This document shows positions 3,154 to 63,040 of a stretch of 64,000 bases of DNA, piece after piece (the first letter of the stretch is position 1; the number at the start of each line of letters is the position of its first letter). A program made the position numbers and the translations under genes. The notes under the pieces are model-generated. The model was not told the origin of the DNA. It did not search any database and was given only the letters and a program-made list of their open reading frames with translations. Origin of the DNA: a virus (Duplodnaviria; Caudoviricetes); IMG/VR virus record IMGVR_UViG_3300021387_000688, one strand, 5' to 3'.

Positions 3154-4845
3154 ATGGTATTAAAAGTATATAGAGTTGGTGATTTAGATAAATACCAAAG
3201 AAAAGCAGATTCAATGTATCAAATGTTTGGAAGAAGTACAGGTTACTTTGGCACTGGTTATTACTTTTGTACAAAGCCAGAATATTGTTGTACAATGACA
3301 AGAGAAAATGATCCTTTGTATAGACTTACATTAAAGGAAGGTATCAAACTTATAAAAGGTACTCAAAAATTACACGACAAATTAAAAGCTTGGAATGCTT
3401 TTATGATTAACTATCCTCGTCTCTTGAGTAAAGATTTAATCGATAAGGAAAAACGGTTTGCACATTATGCAATAGATTATTATACAGAGCGCCAACTTAT
3501 AGGTTCGAAATTAAAAGAGGATTTTGAAGTTTGGGGAGACTGGGCAGACAATTGGAAAGAATATCTTAGCCGAGAATATGGTATAAGAGAAATGATAAAA
3601 CGTGCAAAAGATATACCAGATTTGGAAGAGTTTGCAAATATATTAGAGAGTGACAAACCTGACTTTGATAGGATAGATGAAATCCAAAAAGAAAATGAAG
3701 ATTTATTTGATTACGAATATTTAAGTTCTATGAGAGATTTGGTTTTCGATGTTTTAGAACTTTTACCTATTCAATTGAATACAGATACGGAAACAATAAA
3801 AATGGCGGCTGATCATATTTACGAAACTTATGAAAGTTTTTATGAAAACGGAAGATTGAAACATGATTCGGATTTATCTGAAGACGATTCCTTTCCTACT
3901 CAATTGTTAAAGATTTTAGGATATGAAGGCGTTTGGCCAAGCAATGAATGTGACAATACAACTTATGGGGGAGTAATATTTGATTTAGAAAATTTCACTT
4001 ACGAAAGAATTGCAGACCACGCTAAAGATTATATTAAGAAAGATTTGAAAGAATCTACAGAAACATTAAAACAATTTAAAGTTTTATATCATGGTTCTAA
4101 AAATGGGGAATTAAGAAAAAATGAAAAACATAGCTACAATTGTTTGTATGTGACACCCGTTTTTGCTTATGCTGCAATGTACAGTACAGATTCTGATTCT
4201 ACACATGGTTGTGTTTTTGAAATGAAACCTGTTAGAGACTTAAACATTTTTGATGCAAATGATGAAGGGGCTTTAGAACAATTAAAAGCAAAAGTAGAAG
4301 AATTAAATCCTGAAAATACTTTAGTAAGAAGAATCAAATGGGAAGACTTGAAAACAAAAGATTGGAGTTCTGTTTGTTTCAAGCAAGATGAGGTAAGGGA
4401 TAAATTATTACTCGAATCTGTAAAAGCTTTAGGATATGATGGTTATATAAATACCGAGTGGGATGAAGATTGCGCTGAATGGTATGCTAGAGGGTTAGGC
4501 GGTTGCGGTAAAGTTGTAAATACAACTTCTATTGGAATATTTAATGAAGACCTTTTAGAGATAGTCGATGAGAAATATTTTGAAGATTATTCAGACGATG
4601 AGTTATTTAATGAATGCCATCAAGCCGATGAGGATTTGTTTATAACCTTTTTGCAGGATGAAGGTTTTGATGATTACTATTACGATAGTGAAGAAGAAGC
4701 TAAAAAATGGGCAGCCAATAACTTGCTATTCTTAGACGTAGATGAAGTAAATGATTTGGTTGACGAATATGCAAGTTATTCCGATAGGGAAGATGACTGG
4801 GATGAAGAGGAAGATGAAGAGGAAGATGAAGAGGAAGATGATTAG
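3154..4845 (+). CDS. putative virion-packaged protein with two ADP-ribosyltransferase-like (ART-PolyVal-type) domains
   Basis: Domain 1 VYR..FGTGYYF..LGYEGV; domain 2 LYHGS..LYVT..YAAMYS..LGYDGY; LKES linker; acidic tail. Confidence 0.55.
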   Translation: MVLKVYRVGDLDKYQRKADSMYQMFGRSTGYFGTGYYFCTKPEYCCTMTRENDPLYRLTLKEGIKLIKGTQKLHDKLKAWNAFMINYPRLLSKDLIDKEKRFAHYAIDYYTERQLIGSKLKEDFEVWGDWADNWKEYLSREYGIREMIKRAKDIPDLEEFANILESDKPDFDRIDEIQKENEDLFDYEYLSSMRDLVFDVLELLPIQLNTDTETIKMAADHIYETYESFYENGRLKHDSDLSEDDSFPTQLLKILGYEGVWPSNECDNTTYGGVIFDLENFTYERIADHAKDYIKKDLKESTETLKQFKVLYHGSKNGELRKNEKHSYNCLYVTPVFAYAAMYSTDSDSTHGCVFEMKPVRDLNIFDANDEGALEQLKAKVEELNPENTLVRRIKWEDLKTKDWSSVCFKQDEVRDKLLLESVKALGYDGYINTEWDEDCAEWYARGLGGCGKVVNTTSIGIFNEDLLEIVDEKYFEDYSDDELFNECHQADEDLFITFLQDEGFDDYYYDSEEEAKKWAANNLLFLDVDEVNDLVDEYASYSDREDDWDEEEDEEEDEEEDD

Positions 4846-28661: not shown

Positions 28662-29279
28662 TTAACAACCCATATTCTTTAAAACCTCTAAAGGTTTCTT
28701 AGTTTTCTTCATGTAACAATCTGCACATAAACAAGAATATTGTCCATGGTCAATTACAGATTTCTTTCCGTTAAAGTCTCCTGTATCTCCGCTGTAATAA
28801 GAATACTGCGCAGGTTTACCACACTTCATGCAAATGGCTACGTCCTTTTCGATAGCATCCATAAATGGAAGAATTTCAATACTTGTAGGAAATAATTCTG
28901 CTGACCAAGAATATATAATACCTGCAAATACTAAAGGAATCTTTGAATACTTTGAAGCGTTATAATCATAAAAGAATTGGCGCTTAAAAGGAATCATAAA
29001 GAATTCGTCTATAAAAATACATTCTGGATCAACCCAATTATCCTTCAAAAGTGAAAAAATCTCTTCTGGTTTTTCAATTTGAAAAGAATGTACATAAGGA
29101 GATTCCTTCAATTCTTTCATTCGTAAGGAAGTAGTACTTTCGTGACTGCCTCCCCTATCATCCATTTTAGGTTCGAACCAGGCAATATGTTTTTTGGCCA
29201 AAACATATTTTTCAAGTTTACCTACTAACTTTGTAGTTTTACCTGAAAACATTGGGCCTGTAATAAGAGTACAATACAT
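28662..29279 (-). CDS. tdk: thymidine kinase
   Basis: ITGPMFSGKTT, IFIDEF, CxxC..CxxC. Confidence 0.93.
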   Translation of the reverse strand: MYCTLITGPMFSGKTTKLVGKLEKYVLAKKHIAWFEPKMDDRGGSHESTTSLRMKELKESPYVHSFQIEKPEEIFSLLKDNWVDPECIFIDEFFMIPFKRQFFYDYNASKYSKIPLVFAGIIYSWSAELFPTSIEILPFMDAIEKDVAICMKCGKPAQYSYYSGDTGDFNGKKSVIDHGQYSCLCADCYMKKTKKPLEVLKNMGC

Positions 29280-29282
29280 TAA

Positions 29283-29846
29283 TTATTCCTCCACTTTTAT
29301 ATCAGGGAAAGGACCGTACAATTCAAATATAACCATATCAGGCCTTAATTGAAAGTTTCTAACTTCGTATTGCATTTTATGAGCGAGGCAATCTACAAAC
29401 ATCTTAACTTGATATTCGTGGCAATGCATACCCCAGTTAGTTTTCATATTGATAGGTATCCTGTTTAGCTTAATTTCTTCTGGAGCAGAAACAGCAATAT
29501 CCTTTCCTTTTGGCTTTGATAAATTATAGGCATTGGATACGATGTCTGCAATAGAATTCGCCATATCCGTTGCATCTAAAGGTTTAGGGGCTTTCTTAGC
29601 TTTAGAAACAGCGGCATCTTTTCTAGCAAGTCTTTTAGAAGCTGCTTCTGCTATAGTCTCCTCTTCTTTTTTATCTTCTACCTCTTCTACCTTTTTGGTA
29701 GATTTTTTTAACGTAGTGTCCTTTTTGGTAGTTGTCTTTTTTGTTTTTGTTGCAGTAGGTTTCTTCGAACCAGTTCCAGTAACCTTCTTCTCTTTCTCTG
29801 AAGGCTTTTTGGACTTCGAGGTAGTTGACTTTTTTGTGACAGCCAT
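29283..29846 (-). CDS. protein with Lys/Thr-rich basic N-terminus
   Basis: SD AAGGAG; K/T/S low-complexity N-terminus. Confidence 0.75.
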   Translation of the reverse strand: MAVTKKSTTSKSKKPSEKEKKVTGTGSKKPTATKTKKTTTKKDTTLKKSTKKVEEVEDKKEEETIAEAASKRLARKDAAVSKAKKAPKPLDATDMANSIADIVSNAYNLSKPKGKDIAVSAPEEIKLNRIPINMKTNWGMHCHEYQVKMFVDCLAHKMQYEVRNFQLRPDMVIFELYGPFPDIKVEE

Positions 29847-30267
29847 TTATTAAATCTCCTTTAATTTGAGTAGGATTTCTTATTTCCTTATGTACCCGGT
29901 TTAATGATTCTTCCGGTTGATCCCAACCCATTAATAAATCATCTACTTTAACAGCCAATACGTCATTTACCTTATCGTAGGTTTCTTTATTCCAAACGCA
30001 TTTTATTTTTCTGGCAGGAATTAAATCACATTCTACTTTATAGAATGGTATATAAAGCGGATTAGTTTTTTGTTTATAATTCCTAATGAGTTTACCAATT
30101 TTAGAATCAGCGGAATGTTCTAAATCTAATATGTAATCTTTCAAAGGGAGTGGATAACTTTTATATCCATCTCCTTTGAAATACATAATGGCGTCCCATA
30201 ATTCTCTGTTTTTGATTTTATGGATAATTGCGTAAATTCTATTAGGAATCCATTTTCGTAATTTCAT
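29671..30267 (-). CDS. hypothetical protein (predicted leaderless); 3' end overlaps next gene
   Basis: CTATAAT-N6-ATG; 176-nt overlap with 29283-29846. Confidence 0.65.
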   Translation of the reverse strand: MKLRKWIPNRIYAIIHKIKNRELWDAIMYFKGDGYKSYPLPLKDYILDLEHSADSKIGKLIRNYKQKTNPLYIPFYKVECDLIPARKIKCVWNKETYDKVNDVLAVKVDDLLMGWDQPEESLNRVHKEIRNPTQIKGDLINGCHKKVNYLEVQKAFREREEGYWNWFEETYCNKNKKDNYQKGHYVKKIYQKGRRGRR

Positions 30268-30286
30268 ATTGGTATTATAGAAAAGA

Positions 30287-31042
30287 TTACATCCAAACGT
30301 CCATTTTTTGGAAACATCTGTTAACAGGTTCGTAGGATTCCCCGGCTTTACTACCGTACATATCTATAGGGTATACACCATTACGTAATTGGTTTCTTCC
30401 CCATCTTCCAATATTATGGAACATTGTAACACCCACATTATAAGCTATGTACGCGTCCCTCATTTTAGTAAACTCAGAAGTTCTGGTTATATAACCATAG
30501 TATTTATCATAATGTGTTAATATTCTATTATAATACCAGAAACCTACTTCGAGATTCAATGCAGGGTCTAACATATCTTCTATAGTGTAAGTCGTACTAT
30601 GTACTTCATTATACTCTCTTAAACAAACGGGAGTAACTTGAGTTACACCCCAAGCATCCCCTGTTTTATTATGGGCATTGATTTTAAAATCAGATTCTAC
30701 ATGGCATATAGAAAAACCTTCTGATATTTTTAGATTGTTTCGAATTGCGGCACTTATGATTTCATCTACTAACCAATCAACTGTTTCTGCGTTGTATGAT
30801 CCCCAAGATGCTTTTGTAGCTTCGTTAATCTTGTCTGCATAATTTACATTAACTACTAAAGGGGTATTGAATGTTATTTCATCGTTTGCAATAATTACTA
30901 AAGAATTTTCAATATTTATTTTTGGTTCAGGTGTTGATACTTTTCTAATTGCTGCGTCTACTCCAAATACTATAAATCCTAAGAACAAACAAATACCCAA
31001 TACGTAAAGTAACTTTTTTAATAATTGTTCTTCTTTTTTCAT
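30287..31042 (-). CDS. membrane-anchored lytic transglycosylase (SLT domain)
   Basis: ICHVESDF, AWGVTQV, IAYNVG; N-terminal TM. Confidence 0.85.
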   Translation of the reverse strand: MKKEEQLLKKLLYVLGICLFLGFIVFGVDAAIRKVSTPEPKINIENSLVIIANDEITFNTPLVVNVNYADKINEATKASWGSYNAETVDWLVDEIISAAIRNNLKISEGFSICHVESDFKINAHNKTGDAWGVTQVTPVCLREYNEVHSTTYTIEDMLDPALNLEVGFWYYNRILTHYDKYYGYITRTSEFTKMRDAYIAYNVGVTMFHNIGRWGRNQLRNGVYPIDMYGSKAGESYEPVNRCFQKMDVWM

Positions 31043-31096
31043 GTCTGTAAATAAATTACTTGCGCAAAATATTCTCCTTTATTAAATACTTTCTAT

Positions 31097-31507
31097 TTAA
31101 TTAGTTTTTGGTGCAGATTCTTCTAACTTCTGTTTACCTGCTTTCTTTGCTGCAGGAGTGGGTATATAAGTAAGACATTGCAAAAACTTTACAAATTCCC
31201 CTACACTTGTTTCTACAATTTCTGGGTCTCCCGGCATTGCTACTTTTACAGTATTCTTAGAGTTGTATTTAATGAAACGATAAGTCTGTCCATGAGTCTT
31301 ATCCACTACATGCAATACATGCCTTATGTCGTCCCTGTTTCCAGAAGTTACTACATTACTTGTATGCAAGAATGCAAAATTACCTGACAATGCTTCTTCA
31401 TCTACTTCTGTTATTCCGTTAAAAATCTTCATATGTTTTCCTCCTACTTTCCAACTACGAAATCGATCTTTAAAATATCTACTTGTTATTAATGGTACTT
31501 TCTTCAT
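31097..31507 (-). CDS. hypothetical protein
   Basis: SD AGGAG. Confidence 0.75.
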   Translation of the reverse strand: MKKVPLITSRYFKDRFRSWKVGGKHMKIFNGITEVDEEALSGNFAFLHTSNVVTSGNRDDIRHVLHVVDKTHGQTYRFIKYNSKNTVKVAMPGDPEIVETSVGEFVKFLQCLTYIPTPAAKKAGKQKLEESAPKTN

Positions 31508-51432: not shown

Positions 51433-51643
51433 CAGTTAATTAATAATTGATAACAATCAAACAAAAGATCCTTACTGAAGTAGGTCGAGTAACTGAGGTA
51501 ACGTTTAGTAAGTGAAAGAATGAGGGCAGTTAAGACTGAGGTAGATACGATCATGAAATAACCGATGTATAGGCGGTGTAAAGATGATTGTTGAAGGTTG
51601 GATGCAGACGGCAGCGATAAATGCATCAGAGTTTGATTATCTG
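51433..51643 (+). ncRNA. unidentified structured RNA (about 210 nt)
   Basis: Ends pair; TAACAATCA 51451 with TGATTGTTG 51585; begins just after CTATATT box at 51418. Confidence 0.55.
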
Positions 51644-51728
51644 GGTAGGTGTGCCGAATGGTTTGAAGGCAGCGGACTGTAAATCCGTGACATTAGAAAC
51701 ACTGGGGGTTCGAATCCCTCCCTGCCCA
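51643..51728 (+). tRNA. tRNA-Tyr(GTA)
   Basis: Cloverleaf, GCGGA-CTGTAAA-TCCGT, long variable arm. Confidence 0.95.
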
Positions 51729-51732
51729 TCAT

Positions 51733-51815
51733 GCGTTCATGACCGGAGATGGCATCGGGCCTGACTGTAAATCAGGTGTATTCGTACATGGGGAGTTCGA
51801 GTCTCTCAGGGCGCA
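51733..51815 (+). tRNA. tRNA-Tyr(GTA), divergent second copy
   Basis: CCTGA-CTGTAAA-TCAGG; weak acceptor stem. Confidence 0.85.
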
Positions 51816-51855
51816 CTTTTGATCTTTGGCATTATTAAGGAAGGATTTTCTTTAT

Positions 51856-51941
51856 GCACTCGTGGCGGAACTGGTAGACGCCCAGGACTTAAAATCCTGT
51901 GTCGGTTAAACGGCGTACGGGTTCGATTCCCGTCGGGTGCA
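51856..51941 (+). tRNA. tRNA-Leu(TAA)
   Basis: CAGGA-CTTAAAA-TCCTG. Confidence 0.95.
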
Positions 51942-52060
51942 CTAATAGTTGCGGCTACACAACTTAAAAAGATACAACCGATCGAAGGGAACTGAGTATG
52001 TCCTTGTTAACGTTGTTATGTAGTGTTTGAAGGTTGCTGCAAACCGCACCTTCGTTTTAT

Positions 52061-52134
52061 GGTCCCGTAGCTTATCTGGATAAAGCATTTGCCTTCTAAG
52101 CAAAGGATTGGGGGTTCGAGTCCCTCCGGGATCA
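52061..52134 (+). tRNA. tRNA-Arg(TCT)
   Basis: TTTGC-CTTCTAA-GCAAA. Confidence 0.95.
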
Positions 52135-52143
52135 CTATTTTAT

Positions 52144-52214
52144 TCTCCCGTGGTGTAGCGGTCGCACATGAGGTTTTGATCCTTACAGGCTGGGTTCGAG
52201 TCCTAGCGGGAGAA
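52144..52214 (+). tRNA. tRNA-Gln(TTG)
   Basis: TGAGG-TTTTGAT-CCTTA. Confidence 0.93.
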
Positions 52215-52220
52215 CTACAG

Positions 52221-53051
52221 GGTTGGTTTCCGATCCTATTAAAAGATAAACGGTGAATACATAAGCCGTGAAAGTCATATTCGTAAAGGTATGGCGGTGG
52301 GAATTTATTTTCCACTCTACGTGAAAACAATGCATCTAACTTGTGATGGCGTTGACCGACGGCAAGTGCTGAGGTTGATAGTTGCAAGGCTCGGTAGTCG
52401 ACGAGCTTGGTTCAAGTTGAGAAGTTGCTTTCTTAATAGCAACTTTGACTACAAGAATGACAGAAGGTGTATTTATCCTCTAAGAAAGAATTGCAAGTTC
52501 CCATAGAGAGGATAACGAACAACGGTAGGTTCTTCAAAGAAATGAGGAGAATTGAAGTCAGTAGATCGAGTAGTTTTTGCAGACGAAAGTAGAAAGGTGA
52601 AGTTTTCTAAACCAGTCAAAAGCTGGCAAGGAACAAGCTAGACCTCATCTTTCAAGGTAGTCAACCGAAATTCTTATGATTAACTCAGTTGGATAGAGTA
52701 ATTGCCTCCTAAGCAATCTGTCGTAGGTTCAATTCCTACATCACAAGCAAAAGTGTCTAGCACAGCCAAATGAAAATGGCGTTATCCAGGTGAAATATAC
52801 TGGCTTGGTGAGTACCGCAAGGAAAGTCAAGAATGGAATGAAGTAGTCAACTGGTAAGAGCCCGCAAGCTCTTCAGGCCGCAAGCCGCTAGGGATGAAAA
52901 AGGAAATTATAAGTTTGGTTGTAGTGAGTTCGACAACACTCTTTAAGTTGTTCGCCATGCGTTCTACTATCAGAAATGGTAGTGTGATTGAAGTTCCGAA
53001 AGGGATTAAAATGAACGTTGTTTAGGTCAATAAATCTCAGCCTTTTCATTT
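52221..53051 (+). ncRNA. large structured RNA, GOLLD-like, with embedded tRNA
   Basis: About 830 nt; 5' domain closed by 52221-52231/52656-52666; 52893-52903 pairs with 53041-53050; many GNRA hairpins; tRNA in linker. Confidence 0.6.
52674..52747 (+). tRNA. tRNA-Arg(CCT)
   Basis: ATTGC-CTCCTAA-GCAAT. Confidence 0.9.
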
Positions 53052-53055
53052 TTTT

Positions 53056-53127
53056 CAATCTGTAGTTTAACGGATAGAACTTCAGCCTCCTAAGCTGAAA
53101 GTGCGAGTTCAATTCTCGCCAGGTTGA
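53056..53127 (+). tRNA. tRNA-Arg(CCT), second copy
   Basis: TCAGC-CTCCTAA-GCTGA. Confidence 0.92.
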
Positions 53128-53129
53128 CT

Positions 53130-53270
53130 ATATAGCATAAGTTGTTCCTATTAAGAGCATGACTAAAATCTGCTGGCAATGCGCCGTATGGGTTCGACTC
53201 CCATCGATCCTCTAAAGGGGATTGTGGTGGAATGGTAGACACGGCAGACTCATTATACAACCCGCTATAT
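53130..53270 (+). tRNA. circularly permuted tRNA-Leu (TAA or CAA) in paired flanks
   Basis: 3' half 53161-53211 precedes 5' half 53218-53250. Confidence 0.8.
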
Positions 53271-53277
53271 TTTTTAT

Positions 53278-53350
53278 AGGTCCTTAGTGTTAACGGTTAG
53301 CACGACAGTCTCCAAAACTGTTTGTGAGGGTTCGAATCCTTCAGGGCCTG
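53278..53350 (+). tRNA. tRNA-Trp(CCA)
   Basis: ACAGT-CTCCAAA-ACTGT. Confidence 0.95.
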
Positions 53351-53516
53351 AAACTGAATGGGTAGCCACTGAAAAGTAAATAGACTGTTTATGAAGTAGG
53401 GGTCCAAACAGAGCTTGTCGCTGATTACATATCAAAGAGTTATTAGTCTAGTCAACTAGATTCGGAGATGGTTTGAAGCTAAACAGGATGACAAAGGGCG
53501 AGTCCTGATTTTTTAT

Positions 53517-53600
53517 CGTTCGGTGGCGGAATTGGTAGACGCACTGGACTCAAAATCCAGCGGTGGCAACACCATGAGGGTTCGATTCCCTCCCGGACGA
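53517..53600 (+). tRNA. tRNA-Leu(CAA)
   Basis: CTGGA-CTCAAAA-TCCAG. Confidence 0.95.
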
Positions 53601-53730
53601 CTCAAATCCCTCTTCCTAAAGTTGGGAGAAAAAGTAACTTTCGGATAGCGGTACAGCCGCATCTTTTTTCTATCCAGTATGAAAGTTATGAGGACGGTGA
53701 AAGGCTCCCGTCCATTTTTTTAAGGAAAAG

Positions 53731-53872
53731 AAATTGCACAGAGTGTTCCTATTATTGCTTTGGGAGCCCTGGGTTGTAGGTTCGAGTCCTACCCTGCCAA
53801 CTATTTCAAAAAGTTAAAAACTTTGGCAGGTAGCTCAACTGGTAGAGCAAGGATTTTTACACTTCGCAATTT
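53731..53872 (+). tRNA. circularly permuted tRNA-Pro(TGG) in paired flanks
   Basis: 3' part 53757-53800 precedes 5' part 53824-53852; rejoined stem AGGGC-TTTGGGA-GCCCT. Confidence 0.85.
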
Positions 53873-53879
53873 TTATATA

Positions 53880-53947
53880 TGAGGTTTAGCTTAGACTCGG
53901 TTAAAGCAACGTGCACAGAAAGGAGGTTCGATTCCTTCTAACCTCAA
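53880..53947 (+). ncRNA. tRNA-like element lacking an anticodon arm
   Basis: TGAGGTT/AACCTCA acceptor, GCTT/AAGC D stem, GGTTCGATTCC T arm. Confidence 0.65.
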
Positions 53948-53949
53948 GC

Positions 53950-54398
53950 AAAGCCGTAGGGAGTAGGATAACTCTTTAGCTTATAGGTTCAGTACTAACC
54001 TGTGAACTAATCACTCCCGAACTAGGTACAGGAACGAAAACTGAAGTGGGGAAGAAGCGGAGGTTGGATACTGTGGTAATCCTAGAGCATGTGAAAGTAG
54101 GAGAGTTGACTTTGGAGAGTGCCAACTTAATGTTCAACCCTGATCCAAGTATCTCTTCCCTTATAGGAAGGGTACGAAAAATGCATTGGATAGAATTAGA
54201 TGCTCCTACATATAAAAAATGACGATTATCGCACACGAGATGATCAAAAAGGTGCAACAACGGTGGGGAAAGCCCATGCCGGTTAAAAGAGCAGATCTGC
54301 GCGATGTCCTTCGACGGTATCTGCCGTAAGAGGGTAGGGGAACCTTGTAGACAAGGGACTGAAGGGGTGTACTCGATCCGAAAAGTTATCTTTTTTTT
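53950..54398 (+). ncRNA. unidentified large structured RNA (about 430 nt)
   Basis: GATAACT 53967 pairs with AGTTATC 54384; GC-enriched, multiple hairpins, T run at end. Confidence 0.6.
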
Positions 54399-54402
54399 TA
54401 TT

Positions 54403-54492
54403 TCAGGATAATTCCTGCAAGGTCCGCGGATGTAGGAAATGGAAACCTTATAGATCAATAAGGAATAGGACGTTCGAATCGTTTGATCCTGA
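54403..54492 (+). ncRNA. atypical tRNA-like cloverleaf
   Basis: TCAGGAT/ATCCTGA, CCTGCA/TGTAGG, CCTTAT/ATAAGG, T loop TTCGAAT. Confidence 0.55.
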
Positions 54493-54750
54493 CTTCACAA
54501 CAGCTGGTGACAATTATCCAGGAACACTTAGAGTCCGCTAAGGTTAGCTGCAACTAACTGGATGCTCAATGTATAGCAAAGACTGTGCAAAGATGACTGG
54601 AAGAAAGAGACACGTGGAAGGGTGTCGGGTAACTTTGCTACCTCCATAACGAGAAACCCGCCGTGATTTGCAGTCAACGATACAGTTTCTCTACTTCCAA
54701 TTTTTGGAGTGATCCATATCGGATTATTAGACATTAAGTCTGAAACATAT

Positions 54751-54833
54751 TGGAGCGTATCTCAGCTGTCTTATAAACAGTCCGGTATAATTCGAGTAAT
54801 TGGTGGATGAGGGTTCAACTCCCTCCGCTCCAA
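54751..54833 (+). tRNA. D-armless tRNA-Ile(TAT)-like RNA with long variable region
   Basis: TGGAGCG/CGCTCCA; GCTGT-CTTATAA-ACAGT; GAGGG-TTCAACT-CCCTC. Confidence 0.7.
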
Positions 54834-54922
54834 CTATATGTAATGATATCATTACAGGAATAAGATAAAATGGACTACCCCAACATAATCGCGATATGTG
54901 GGTAACGAAAGAGTAGTCAAAA

Positions 54923-54994
54923 TCCGCCGTAGCTCATCTGGTCAGAGCAGCTCTTTTTAAGGGTATGTAGTGGGTTCGACCCCCACCGGTGGTT
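54923..54994 (+). tRNA. degenerate tRNA, probably Lys(TTT)
   Basis: Normal D and T arms; 4-bp anticodon stem GCTC-TTTTTAA-GGGT; 1:72 mismatch. Confidence 0.6.
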
Positions 54995-54997
54995 TAT

Positions 54998-55294
54998 ATG
55001 GAAAATGCACAGCCAAGAATTAAGTTTAAAAACTTTTGGCTTTGGTTTAAAGATCAAGTAATGCGTAAAAGGGCTTTCTATAATTTCTTTATAAGTAGAA
55101 ATGCTTGGGGAGCTTTTTCTATCAACTCCCACATCAGAGCAAGTACAGGGCAACCAAAAGTAACTTACAATACAGTAGAATCTGCGTTAAGGGCCGCAGA
55201 GAGTATGAGTAAAAAATATAACAAACATTTTTCAACTTATAAATGTTTGTTCTGCGATGGTTACCATGTAGGAAAAAATAGAGATAATAAATAG
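54998..55294 (+). CDS. small basic protein with C-terminal YxCxxCxGYH motif
   Basis: Start placed at ATG 54998; YKCLFCDGYHVG. Confidence 0.7.
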   Translation: MENAQPRIKFKNFWLWFKDQVMRKRAFYNFFISRNAWGAFSINSHIRASTGQPKVTYNTVESALRAAESMSKKYNKHFSTYKCLFCDGYHVGKNRDNK

Positions 55295-55322: not shown

Positions 55323-55367
55323 TGCAAATTAAAACTTTTCTACTATATAATTAATAGGAGAATTTAT

Positions 55368-56789
55368 ATGCGTAAGAATTTATTTAAAGAAGCAATACCG
55401 GCAGAAAGGGACCGTAGAGCCGCAGGGGTAAAATACCGCGATTCAAGTGTAATAGATATGCTTCATGTTGAGGATGATACTTCCGGAGCTGCTACTGCTA
55501 AATTGATTTCTTTCTTAAAGAAAGAAAAATTCAGCGAATACCAAGATTATTTTCGAAAAACAATCAAGCTTTTTGGAGAAAACTATGATGTATATGTTCC
55601 TTATGTATATAAAAAAGGAACATTTACAGTAGTTAGATGGTTTATCGAACCTGGCAAGTACAATAGAACTGCATGGGCGGAATGGTATAATGATGAAGAG
55701 GATTGGGAATATCTTGATCCATCTTTCGCAAAAATCGTTGAGAGATATGGTCTAAAAAGAATGAAGGCTTACATAGGGGATGATCCTTACTATGGTTTAG
55801 GACTTCGTATGCAGAATACTGAAATGACTTCTAATGATTTTGTTAATAAATTGTTAGTGGTTTATAATAAACTTGAAAAGGTAAAAGATAGTTACAATAC
55901 AACTAGTCAAATGGATGATAGAGAATACTACACATATAAAGGCAAGTTACCAAATAACAACCTTCAAATAAACGTATTCTATGTAGACGGAGAAAATGGT
56001 TGTACAATTGAATATGATTGTGAAGTATTAGGTGAAGATCTTAAATGCTATGTTGAATCTGAAAATTCTGCAGTCGGTCTAGATCTTAACGAACCTTCTG
56101 TAACAAAACCTTTCTTTGAGGTTTTAGCTGAAGAAGGAATTATTGAAGAGGAAGATGTAGATTCTTTAGCTGAAGAATTTGATAATGGGCCAACTTATAA
56201 TTATCTTCAAATTTTTGATGTAAGTGATTGGCCAAAGTATTTTGAAATGGTAGGGGAATTCTTAAAAGCAGAGGGTTATATAACTGAATACAATGTAGAA
56301 GCTAGTAGAGCCGTAAACTCTCGTAGAAAGAACCGTATTAAGAACAATCCAAATCTTAGACAGCAGTACGAATCCAGAATTTCTAAAATCTCAAGAAGAA
56401 TGAGAGAAGCAGAAGAAGATTGGGATGACCTTGGATACGATGATTCAGATGCAGGTGTAGAAGATTGGGATGATCCTAATGAAGCTTTAGATGGTGAAGA
56501 TTATTTCACTTATGATGATCCTGATTATACAGGAATGAATTCTGGGGAAAGAGCTTATGACCATTACGATTCTGATATGGAAGATGTAATTGCAGATTCA
56601 ATGCCAACCCGTAAAAAGGGATTAGGTATTGGAAAGAAAAGAGGAGACTCTTCATATTTCAATAAGGATTATTTAGACGCCCCAGATATGTGGGATGAAA
56701 ATGGAGACAATGTTCCTGAAGAAATTGAATGGAAGTTGACTAAAAAAGTTGCAGAATCTAAAAAACCTTTCAAAACAAGATTGTATTAA
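55368..56789 (+). CDS. acidic putative capsid-internal protein
   Basis: LFKEA, YESRISKISRRMREAE, VAESKK motifs; SD AGGAG. Confidence 0.6.
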   Translation: MRKNLFKEAIPAERDRRAAGVKYRDSSVIDMLHVEDDTSGAATAKLISFLKKEKFSEYQDYFRKTIKLFGENYDVYVPYVYKKGTFTVVRWFIEPGKYNRTAWAEWYNDEEDWEYLDPSFAKIVERYGLKRMKAYIGDDPYYGLGLRMQNTEMTSNDFVNKLLVVYNKLEKVKDSYNTTSQMDDREYYTYKGKLPNNNLQINVFYVDGENGCTIEYDCEVLGEDLKCYVESENSAVGLDLNEPSVTKPFFEVLAEEGIIEEEDVDSLAEEFDNGPTYNYLQIFDVSDWPKYFEMVGEFLKAEGYITEYNVEASRAVNSRRKNRIKNNPNLRQQYESRISKISRRMREAEEDWDDLGYDDSDAGVEDWDDPNEALDGEDYFTYDDPDYTGMNSGERAYDHYDSDMEDVIADSMPTRKKGLGIGKKRGDSSYFNKDYLDAPDMWDENGDNVPEEIEWKLTKKVAESKKPFKTRLY

Positions 56790-61651: not shown

Positions 61652-63040
61652 TTACTTAAGTTCGTAACTTACATCTTTTTGAATGATTTCTACATTCTTA
61701 AATCCATTTGTATTTAGATATTTTTGCAAGAAGTCTTGAGCCTCTTTATCACCATGTACTAAGAAAATCTTTTTAAGTTTAGAAGTATCAATTTTCTTTA
61801 ACCATTCTACTTGCTCTTCAAAATCTGCATGAGAAGAAAATGCACTTAAGCTTTGAACCTCTGCATTTAATTTATGCTCATCTCCTTCAATATTTACAAT
61901 AGGATTCTTTTCAAGAATATCTCTACCTAAAGTACCTTCTCCTTGATAACCAACTAACAATATAGTATTACGAGGATTAGAAACTCCAAACTGTAAATGA
62001 TTGATGATACGGCCACCTTCACACATACCTGAACTTGCCAATACAATACAAGGCTTTCTACTTCTGGCAACTTCAACACTTTCTTTGAAATCATTTACGC
62101 AATGTAAACTACCTACAGAGAATGGGTTCTTACCTTTACTTACAAAGTTGTTTTGAATATTTTCATTGAAACATTCTGGGTGAATATTAAATACACCTGT
62201 AGCATTAACAGCCATTGGAGAATCAATATATACAGGTATTCTAGGTATCTTCTCTTCTCTCATTAAGTTCTTCAAATAATAAACTAACTCTTGTGCACGT
62301 TCAATTGCAAAGGTAGGTATAATAACTTTACCACCTCTTTCAATAGTTCTGTTTATAATATTTGCAAACTCTTTTAATGCCAATCCCGCATCTTGGTGTT
62401 TGCGATTTCCATAAGTACTTTCCATTACGATGTAATCTGGTGCAGGGAAAGAAGTCTCCGGAGGATTAGTAATAGGGTTGTTAGCTCTACCCAAATCTCC
62501 TGTAAACAAAATATGCATTGGCGTTTTTAACAAACCGAAAAACTTTTTTCTTTTGATTTCTAAATCTACTAAAGCAGATCCTAAGATATGACCCGCATCG
62601 TAAAAAGTAATTTTTACATTATCATTAAGATGTTTCTCTTTATGATAGAAGTGACATCTAAATTGATTAATAGTTTTTACAACATCACTTTCTTCATAGT
62701 AAGATCCGAGCTTTTCATGTTTTTGAATTTTAGCAGAGTCTAGCATTATGATAGAAGATAAATCTCTCGTGGCTGGAGTAGATCTAATCTTTCCTTCATA
62801 ACCTTCTTTTACAAGTTTAGGTAATAGACCACAATGGTCAAAATGTGCATGGGTTAGAATGATTGTTTCTATATCTTTTATATCTATAGGACAAACAAAA
62901 TCTTTATTCTTTTGCTGATCTTCTTGATTGCCTTGCCATGCACCGTAGTCAATCAAGATATATTTATCATCTAATTTCAAAAAATGCTTAGACCCTGTAA
63001 CTTCGCCTACCGCACCAAAACTTTTTAATTCTACCTTCAA
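61652..63040 (-). CDS. MBL-fold beta-CASP ribonuclease
   Basis: EVTGS, LTHAHFDHCG, AGHILGS, FTGDLG, MESTYG, SGMCEGGRI, FSSHAD, LVHG. Confidence 0.95.
   Translation of the reverse strand: MKVELKSFGAVGEVTGSKHFLKLDDKYILIDYGAWQGNQEDQQKNKDFVCPIDIKDIETIILTHAHFDHCGLLPKLVKEGYEGKIRSTPATRDLSSIIMLDSAKIQKHEKLGSYYEESDVVKTINQFRCHFYHKEKHLNDNVKITFYDAGHILGSALVDLEIKRKKFFGLLKTPMHILFTGDLGRANNPITNPPETSFPAPDYIVMESTYGNRKHQDAGLALKEFANIINRTIERGGKVIIPTFAIERAQELVYYLKNLMREEKIPRIPVYIDSPMAVNATGVFNIHPECFNENIQNNFVSKGKNPFSVGSLHCVNDFKESVEVARSRKPCIVLASSGMCEGGRIINHLQFGVSNPRNTILLVGYQGEGTLGRDILEKNPIVNIEGDEHKLNAEVQSLSAFSSHADFEEQVEWLKKIDTSKLKKIFLVHGDKEAQDFLQKYLNTNGFKNVEIIQKDVSYELK

Follow-up and report, generated by a model that had tools for sequence, protein, structure and literature searches.

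A conserved RNA module around permuted phage tRNA genes, linked to a protein of about 600 residues and to RtcB, points to a possible new system of tRNA splicing or RNA repair in phages and Bacteroidota

Two tRNA genes in a phage genome of ~398 kb, of which a 64 kb stretch was analysed (hereafter the window), are circularly permuted, and each is enclosed by a copy of the same covarying RNA module. This module is apparently undescribed and widespread in phages and Bacteroidota, where it is found as a stand-alone hairpin, as a clamp around other small RNAs and as an insert in the anticodon arm of tRNA genes. Together with a protein of ~600 aa encoded next to it (protein X) and the frequent presence of RtcB, it suggests a new tRNA-splicing or RNA-repair system in these phages and bacteria. 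The full-text literature searched yielded no account of the module or of protein X, none of phage or bacterial tRNAs that are permuted or spliced by proteins, and none of an RtcB-linked small RNA in Bacteroidota.

The two permuted tRNA genes of the window

In both enclosed genes the order is 3' half, linker and 5' half, and the module strands lie outside them, as listed here.

Copy 1
53130-53136, + strand: P1 5' strand ATATAGC, pairing with 53264-53270; P1 covaries across the family
53137-53140, + strand: junction J1/2, ATAA (family consensus A-N-A-R)
53141-53145, + strand: P2 5' strand GTTGT, pairing with 53257-53261
53146-53153, + strand: single-stranded octamer TCCTATTA, same letters in both window copies
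53154-53163, + strand: variable spacer from the octamer to the 3' exon
53164-53213, + strand: tRNA-Leu 3' exon, positions 34 to 73 (ARAGORN on the rejoined halves); start uncertain by 1-2 nt, GACT being duplicated at the junction
53214-53216, + strand: AAA loop closing the acceptor stem (from the sequence)
53217-53250, + strand: tRNA-Leu 5' exon, positions 1 to 33 (rejoined halves)
53251-53256, + strand: A/U-rich linker CATTAT, its last base being the conserved U
53257-53270, + strand: P2' ACAAC (53257-53261), CC, and P1' GCTATAT (53264-53270) (from pairing)

Copy 2
53731-53746, + strand: P1 AAATTGC (53731-53737), J1/2 ACAG, and P2 AGTGT (53742-53746) (from pairing and fold)
53747-53756, + strand: octamer TCCTATTA (53747-53754) and a 2-nt spacer, TT
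53757-53800, + strand: tRNA-Pro(UGG) 3' exon, positions 30 to 73 (unique join)
53801-53823, + strand: linker loop closing the acceptor stem (from the sequence)
53824-53852, + strand: tRNA-Pro 5' exon, positions 1 to 29 (rejoined halves)
53853-53872, + strand: linker ATTTTT, P2' ACACT (53859-53863), TC, and P1' GCAATTT (53866-53872)

The leader and the trailer correspond to 53130-53153 and 53256-53270 in copy 1, and to 53731-53754 and 53858-53872 in copy 2. Each pair forms a P1 of 7 bp and a P2 of 5 bp, separated by an internal loop of 4 nt on one side and 2 nt on the other, with the octamer following P2. The leader and trailer strings quoted in the original prediction are all present where it had placed them, and its reading of the helices is borne out: two pairs differ between the P2 helices of the two copies and three between the P1 helices, all of them compensated, while the octamer is unchanged. 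Both copies fit every position of the module consensus, GTTCCTATTA has two perfect matches in the 64 kb window, namely copies 1 and 2, and the minimum-free-energy fold of 53729-53874 contains P1 and P2 of copy 2 (z = -2.5).

When rotated, copy 1 becomes a tRNA-Leu, for which ARAGORN gives the anticodon UAA, CAA being equally possible because of the GACT duplication. The AAA loop is the sole stretch in which copy 1 differs from its near-identical relative L159, which has ATG there. Copy 2 is a flawless tRNA-Pro(UGG) only if 53852 (tRNA position 29) is joined to 53757 (position 30), the one join that yields a 5-bp anticodon stem and a 7-nt loop with U33 and G37. The Val call made by ARAGORN on the rejoined copy 2 contains a mismatch and was rejected. 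The module occupies an intron-like place in the anticodon arm, between positions 29 and 30 in tRNA-Pro and at about 33/34 in tRNA-Leu. Neither permuted gene was detected by ARAGORN run on the window, nor by Rfam at gathering level. Assembled contigs of four metatranscriptome runs, compared with 51600-55000, showed no back-join of 53250 to 53164 or of 53852 to 53757, the joints listed in them being cross-matches between T loops; as such contigs are blind to small RNAs, this counts neither for nor against splicing. Exact scans of the metagenome collection for the spliced junctions of the window tRNA-Pro and of the tRNA-Met of the bacterial locus L140, whose predicted join is G29 to G30, gave no match.

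A widespread and covarying RNA module

A scan of viral contigs for the octamer followed by a T loop returned 19 matches, eight of which are true relatives, and a scan for GCANARNNNGTTCCTATTA returned at least 117 loci. A script requiring GTTCCTA, a complementary ACNNN and a P1 of 5 bp then yielded, among the matches listed, 89 copies (81 distinct) from 37 viral loci, while reversed sequences used as a control gave 8. Bacterial genomes gave 24 loci with ~19 true modules, mostly in Flavobacteriaceae, Saprospiraceae, Muribaculaceae and other Bacteroidales, plus Fibrobacter. The resulting consensus is P1(..GC) A-N-A-R P2(NNNGU) UCCUAU(U/A)(A) [insert] N5-U P2'(ACNNN) YC P1'(GC..), that is, an outer stem P1, the A-N-A-R junction, an inner stem P2 (NNNGU), UCCUAUUA and an insert. 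R1, a covariance model made from the compact copies, does not span inserts of 100 nt and mis-aligns copy 1 of the window, and therefore the long-insert copies were found by the script.

Positions outside the selection filter are conserved at 81-88%: the first and third positions of J1/2 are A, and the fourth is a purine, in 69 of the 81 distinct copies (85% each), the base before P2' is U in 71 (88%), the C of the 3' loop YC is present in 81% and the P1 closing pairs C-G and G-C in 78-88%. Since copies were selected for pairing, the percentage of paired positions is circular; the compensatory counts and the leader-swap comparison are not. Of 419 leader-only matches in the fetched loci, 79 are followed downstream by a partner that can pair with their own P1 and P2; swapping the leaders among loci lowers the number of complete modules to 10.8 +/- 3.3. 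Aligned with MAFFT, 34 compact copies show 106 cells in which both sides of a pair have changed, as compared with 33 +/- 5 in shuffles, and the covariation score is 0.664, as compared with 0.208; none of 500 shuffles reaches the observed value of either measure, and all covariation measures collapse once the partners are slid by 1-3 columns. P1 covaries, as do three of the five pairs of P2. The flanks of the two window genes are indeed one shared covarying RNA module, as had been proposed from these two copies, and at the level of the family both the leader swap and the shuffles place the pattern well above chance.

That the module is a DNA-level repeat, such as a recombination site or the end of a mobile element, or a coincidence is therefore a very remote prospect: it is repeated, at times in tandem, within mobile genomes, as such an element would be, but copy-specific compensatory changes keep the pairing, the module always lies on the strand of the tRNA and of X, and its conserved positions are strand-specific and single-stranded. 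The octamer shows no consistent complementarity to J1/2, the insert or the trailer linker. The exact complement of the octamer, TAATAGGA, occurs at 55352-55359 in the ribosome-binding region of the open reading frame starting at 55368, and was treated as chance because near-matches occur at shuffled frequency.

Four genomic settings

The commonest form of the module (setting a) is a stand-alone hairpin of ~60 nt with an A/U-rich loop of 16-30 nt, often in tandem runs of 2-9. In setting (b) the module clamps a small T-arm-like hairpin and a GNRA hairpin, as at 4041-4122 of L140 and in the viral locus L012. In setting (c) it encloses complete tRNA-like RNAs, P2' starting 5-6 nt after the CCA; three of the four cases carry a tetraloop instead of an anticodon loop (L003 at 3619, L005 at 1499 and L129 at 7624), and such RNAs cannot decode. 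Setting (d) comprises interrupted true tRNAs, which are either permuted (both window copies, L010, L011, L012, L038 and L086) or intron-bearing. In the intron form the module is an insert of 45-60 nt in which P1 is reduced to 2-3 bp closed by a loop (viral L001, L003, L005, L018, L129 and L133; bacterial L140 and L149), and these genes appear in the Rfam output as tRNAs of 110-119 nt. The non-permuted, intron-like versions that the original prediction had suggested looking for do therefore exist, e.g. at 3733-3846 of L003 and 3857-3970 of L140. As worded, however, the original prediction is not supported in one respect, since the module is not specific to permuted tRNAs: most copies are stand-alone hairpins of ~60 nt in tandem upstream of the gene for X, and others clamp anticodon-less tRNA-like RNAs.

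For 18 interrupted genes the exons were rejoined on paper by removing 3-8 nt before P2' in combination with 0-14 nt after the octamer, and ARAGORN was run on every product. For 17 of the 18, one or more products have a 5-bp stem and a 7-nt loop with U33 and R37, and the rejoining that gives a perfect arm is unique for copy 2 of the window and for the gene at 1076 of L010. The interruption sites are 28/29, 29/30, 32/33 and 33/34. Between them the rebuilt genes carry a range of anticodons, for Leu, Pro, Met, Thr, Glu, Gly, Lys, Val, Gln and Ser, and the homologues in L003 (Glu-UUC) and L005 (Glu-CUC) differ in the wobble base only. The linker before P2' measures 5-8 nt, most often 6, and the spacer after the octamer 0-10 nt. 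A strict 6-nt ruler for the end of the 5' exon fitted the first six cases and was abandoned when later ones gave linkers of 5-8 nt; with linkers and spacers of such variable length, no simple ruler fixes the cut sites. For annotators, the module provides a rule that finds tRNA genes missed or miscalled by current finders.

Linkage to protein X and RtcB

In nearly all the bacterial loci 2-3 tandem modules are located 0-200 nt upstream of a same-strand open reading frame of 585-650 aa, protein X, which belongs to no Pfam or NCBIfam family. A hidden Markov model built from the bacterial proteins identified X in 18 viral loci, in 17 of which a module is directly upstream on the same strand; in these 17, as in the bacterial loci, 0-150 nt separate the end of the modules from the X reading frame. 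Of 23 viral records with modules, 18 encode X, among them all five that are at least 90% complete, and the five records without it are fragments of 3-9%. In an even draw of 141 Bacteroidota genomes, two encode full-length X and a third gave a weak partial match (E 1.3e-7); R1 matches exactly the two genomes with full-length X, leaving 139 with neither, and the module adjoins X in both. X is therefore a sporadic, horizontally moving gene. It has more than 1,300 homologues, the best-listed 120 of which share 67-98% identity and are all named hypothetical, with Zobellia and Chryseobacterium strains among its carriers, and it is abundant in viral clusters.

AlphaFold models of X show a helical N-terminal domain and a TerD-like beta-sandwich (residues 377-536; Z 10.1 to 2qz7 and 9.7 to 2kxt). 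For the N-terminal domain Foldseek gave no usable match against the PDB, the highest VIA Z being 5.1, and the Atlas returned only the viral clusters of X itself; matches of the full model to the botulinum complex (TM 0.09) were discarded as noise. No recognisable nuclease fold emerged from the structure comparisons. The invariant residues of the N-terminal domain are His, Tyr, Thr, Arg and Asn, and none of them is acidic, a set that, from conservation in the sequences, would suit RNA binding or RNA cleavage without a metal ion.

In three loci of Flavobacteriia (L143, L142 and L135) rtcB is the next gene upstream of the modules, and L143 also has a divergent WYL regulator. RtcB is encoded in six of 17 viral records; the complete phage G008 carries an interrupted tRNA, yet has no RtcB of its own, and across the viral records interrupted tRNAs do not strictly follow the presence of a phage-encoded RtcB. 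A host RtcB-type enzyme could serve instead. Within the 64 kb window and the 10 kb that follow it in the ~398 kb phage, neither X nor RtcB is encoded. The open reading frame at 55368-56789 was considered as a divergent X and rejected (hhalign probability 1.5%), and the RecA-like protein of the phage has no relatives in IMG/VR.

The position of tandem modules in the 5' leader of X, on the same strand in 17 of the 18 viral loci and in the bacterial loci, is what would be expected of a cis-acting operator by which X controls its own mRNA, the copies in phage tRNAs merely tethering or titrating the protein. However, where X is distant, as for the copies of the window and of L003, the module is equally conserved and is placed precisely in the anticodon arms of tRNAs; a pure operator needs no such placement, which counts against this explanation and makes it improbable. 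The original prediction had proposed a dedicated processing signal, and among its options a binding site for a phage nuclease or ligase. The genetic tie of the module to a dedicated protein and to RtcB fits such a binding site, and a processing signal is a putative role for it.

A possible splicing pathway

Handle-directed splicing, in which the module would be a handle recognised by X and excised from tRNA precursors, with ligation by an RtcB-type enzyme, is put forward here with somewhat less than even confidence on the basis of gene arrangement and RNA sequence. The precursor would fold with its tRNA body formed, the acceptor stem closed by a loop and the anticodon arm held by P1 and P2. 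Cuts would be made in the two single-stranded linkers beside P2, by X or by a nuclease recruited by X, and an RtcB-type ligase of the phage or of the host would join the exon ends to give a circle. The acceptor loop would then be opened by RNase P and, after 3' trimming and CCA addition, a normal tRNA would result. Handle excision followed by 3'-5' ligation is the most economical account of setting (d) taken together with the RtcB linkage. An unspliced branch of 50-140 nt in the anticodon stem or loop would not fit the ribosome.

Several observations count against splicing. Most modules are stand-alone hairpins, with nothing to splice, and cutting and joining the anticodon-less tRNA-like RNAs would give only a circle. 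The variable length of the linkers, which leaves the cut sites without a simple ruler, and the lack of a recognisable nuclease fold in X, of RtcB in G008 and of both genes in the window and the next 10 kb of the ~398 kb phage also weigh against it. A stable Y-RNA-like particle, or autoregulation of X, is the better fit for settings (a) to (c). Both views can coexist, with one handle and one protein serving several cargo RNAs.

Cleavage by the module itself has also to be weighed. As an autonomous small ribozyme it would cleave, or cleave and rejoin, the linkers, RtcB would seal the ends and X would be a helper only. Its small size, with some 18 nucleotides conserved, would suit a ribozyme, as would its tandem copies in loci of phages and of the conflict type, a habit of many small ribozymes, and the linked ligase needs 2',3'-cyclic phosphate and 5'-OH ends. 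Against this, no Rfam ribozyme model matches contiguous compact copies even at E values up to 10, the bases around both inferred cut sites are not conserved, the distances from site to helix vary, two cuts would be needed, and no pseudoknot or tertiary covariation was seen. Models for hammerhead, twister, twister-sister, pistol, hatchet, hairpin and HDV-like ribozymes gave nothing at E up to 10 in 1100-1950 of L012, and known small self-cleaving ribozyme models had no match in the window. The remark in the original prediction that no known ribozyme consensus fits thus holds at the level of Rfam families, and a self-cleaving module is judged a shade less probable even than the operator.

Returning to handle-directed splicing, its broader form would be that Bacteroidota and many large phages have their own protein-dependent tRNA splicing, in which a sequence-specific intron module of ~45 nt would be excised by X, acting as a new endonuclease, and the exons joined by RtcB, maturing intron-bearing and permuted tRNAs alike; this is a tentative proposal, held a little less firmly than the excision of the handle as such. 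If true, the bacterial and phage world would here have its first permuted tRNA genes and its first tRNA introns that do not splice themselves, and the pathway may mask phage tRNAs from host anticodon nucleases until they are needed. To our knowledge, bacterial RtcB has so far been without a clear natural substrate, the tRNA introns of bacteria have been thought to be only self-splicing, and permuted tRNA genes have been known only from few algae and archaea.

Comparison with known systems

Circularly permuted tRNA genes of Cyanidioschyzon merolae, prasinophytes and some archaea are mentioned in PMC3673656 and PMC4238349. As in these genes, the 3' half lies upstream of the 5' half with a short linker between them and the leader pairs with the trailer, a circular intermediate is expected that is then opened by RNase P and 3' processing, and intron-bearing and permuted versions coexist. 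The leader and trailer of the algal and archaeal genes form a sequence-free bulge-helix-bulge that is cut by EndA. The module differs in being conserved in sequence and in lacking a bulge-helix-bulge, as well as in its hosts, which are bacteria and their phages. Its exon ends fall in linkers of 5-8 nt and 8-18 nt beside P2, not in two 3-nt bulges, and the conserved 4-bp central helix of the bulge-helix-bulge was not found in module copies. EndA (PF01974) is absent from 17 module-bearing viral records in a search that found the archaeal controls; as far as we know, bacterial hosts are not expected to have it either.

The archaeal and eukaryal tRNA introns removed by an endonuclease and RtcB share with the module the short, protein-type inserts in the anticodon arm, non-canonical positions included, and the linkage to RtcB. 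Unlike them, none of the 18 genes tested is interrupted at the canonical 37/38 site, the intron is conserved in sequence and structure, and the endonuclease is only putative. Introns of the archaeal or eukaryal type are not described in Bacteria in the literature searched. The group I introns of bacteria and phages likewise interrupt bacterial-type tRNA genes in the anticodon region. They are, however, longer than 200 nt, with P1-P9 and a guanosine-binding site, whereas the module insert measures 45-60 nt, and the group I model RF00028 gave no match even at E up to 10.

Among Rfam families YrlA (RF02553) comes nearest; it matches 53752-53875 of the window with 43.8 bits, in an alignment to copy 2 that spans positions 1-114, and relatives in L012 with 40.4 and 33.8 bits, below the gathering score of 69; the model does not match copy 1, and no module locus tested reaches the gathering threshold. 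YrlA RNAs are bacterial Y RNAs that occur with Ro60/Rsr in rsr-yrlBA-rtcBA operons (PMC4201824; PMC7790460). In both YrlA and the module the two ends of the RNA pair into a closing stem that contains an asymmetric internal loop, and the tRNA-like domain is ordered T arm, acceptor-like hairpin and D arm; in both, several small RNAs lie beside an RNA-binding protein and RtcB, and both are found in phages and bacteria. The conserved nucleotides of the module are instead the A-N-A-R / YC loop and the UCCUAUUA octamer, its partner is an unrelated protein of ~600 aa with a TerD-like domain rather than a TROVE protein, and many of its copies either contain complete, rejoinable anticodon loops or lie within real tRNA genes. 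The TROVE domain (PF05731) is absent from five related viral records, a complete genome of 424 kb among them, where controls were found, and from the 20 window open reading frames scanned. With neither EndA nor TROVE/Ro60 in the related phages, nothing of those kinds explains the RNAs otherwise.

The module might nonetheless be the X-binding stem of unspliced non-coding RNAs that form a stable particle analogous to YrlA/YrlB with Ro60, the tRNA-shaped insert serving as an effector, or as a decoy, to attract or divert enzymes that act on tRNA, RtcB and anticodon nucleases among them. The sub-threshold YrlA matches of copy 2 and of the two L012 relatives, the shared arrangement of T arm, acceptor hairpin and D arm within the closing stem, and a layout of rtcB, small RNAs and an RNA-binding-type protein that mirrors the rsr-yrlBA-rtcBA operons (PMC4201824, PMC7790460) all speak for such a particle, which is the best fit for the stand-alone modules and for those around anticodon-less tRNA mimics. 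It leaves unexplained that 17 of 18 genes rebuild 7-nt loops with U33, R37 and varied sense anticodons, that homologues differ at the wobble base only, and that the module is also a short insert in otherwise ordinary tRNA genes; as an account of the whole it is thus considered rather unlikely, if well ahead of the operator and the ribozyme. The module and X, which lie beside rtcB and tRNA arrays and interrupt tRNAs that are otherwise perfect, offer a concrete candidate, open to experiment, for a particle that splices or repairs tRNAs in bacteria and phages. On the more conservative reading it would be a second class of Y-RNA-like ribonucleoprotein, built on a protein other than Ro60.

Source phage and near-identical copies

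The window is part of a phage of approximately 0.4 Mb from ruminant gut samples (L160, an ENA contig of 397 595 bp), and both of its modules recur as near-identical copies in four additional assemblies. The sole internal difference between copy 1, which surrounds the permuted tRNA-Leu, and these copies is found in the acceptor-closing loop, where AAA is replaced by ATG.

Further elements of the window

51733-51815, low-scoring tRNA match of 83 nt (31 bits)
52214-52833 (to 53012), non-coding stretch of the tRNA array with exact matches to RNA-library contigs
53881-53946, tRNA-like element directly 3' of copy 2, the module around the permuted tRNA-Pro(UGG) (26.8 bits; tRNA cut-off, 29)
53957-54377, second RNA-matched non-coding stretch of the array
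54751-54833, low-scoring tRNA match of 83 nt (35 bits)
61652-63040 (-), beta-CASP/RMMBL (RNase J/CPSF-type) ribonuclease gene

No tRNA was called by ARAGORN in the element adjacent to copy 2, which seems to be devoid of a normal anticodon arm, nor in either of the 83-nt matches, which may be additional unusual or interrupted tRNAs. The two RNA-matched stretches, for which the contigs came from three or four RNA libraries with ends alike between runs of separate studies, are devoid of long ORFs and match no Rfam family; they may be unknown long structured phage RNAs. The ribonuclease gene lies approximately 8 kb from the array. In the ribosome-binding region of the ORF at 55368-56789, TAATAGGA (55352-55359) is the exact complement of the conserved octamer UCCUAUUA, a match that was rejected as chance because near-matches are as frequent as in shuffled sequences.

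Variants and genomic setting in other loci

In L129, a locus from another genome, the module ((-), approx. 4668-4760) is inserted between the 7-nt acceptor 5' strand and the T arm, so that the product is a minihelix-like RNA with neither D nor anticodon arm. The viral record G014 contains a 787-aa open frame (29014-31233 (-)) matching the RtcB model only at positions 1-77 and 154-425; this interrupted match suggests that the ligase gene carries a putative intein-like insertion.

Long tRNA arrays, of 17-19 genes, precede the module-X locus, X being the approximately 600-aa protein encoded beside the modules, in two Flavobacteriaceae:

L140 1562-3347, tRNA array
L155 3016-4734, tRNA array

This arrangement is similar to the cyanobacterial 'L-arrays', described as stress-induced and co-regulated with RtcB (PMC8421152).
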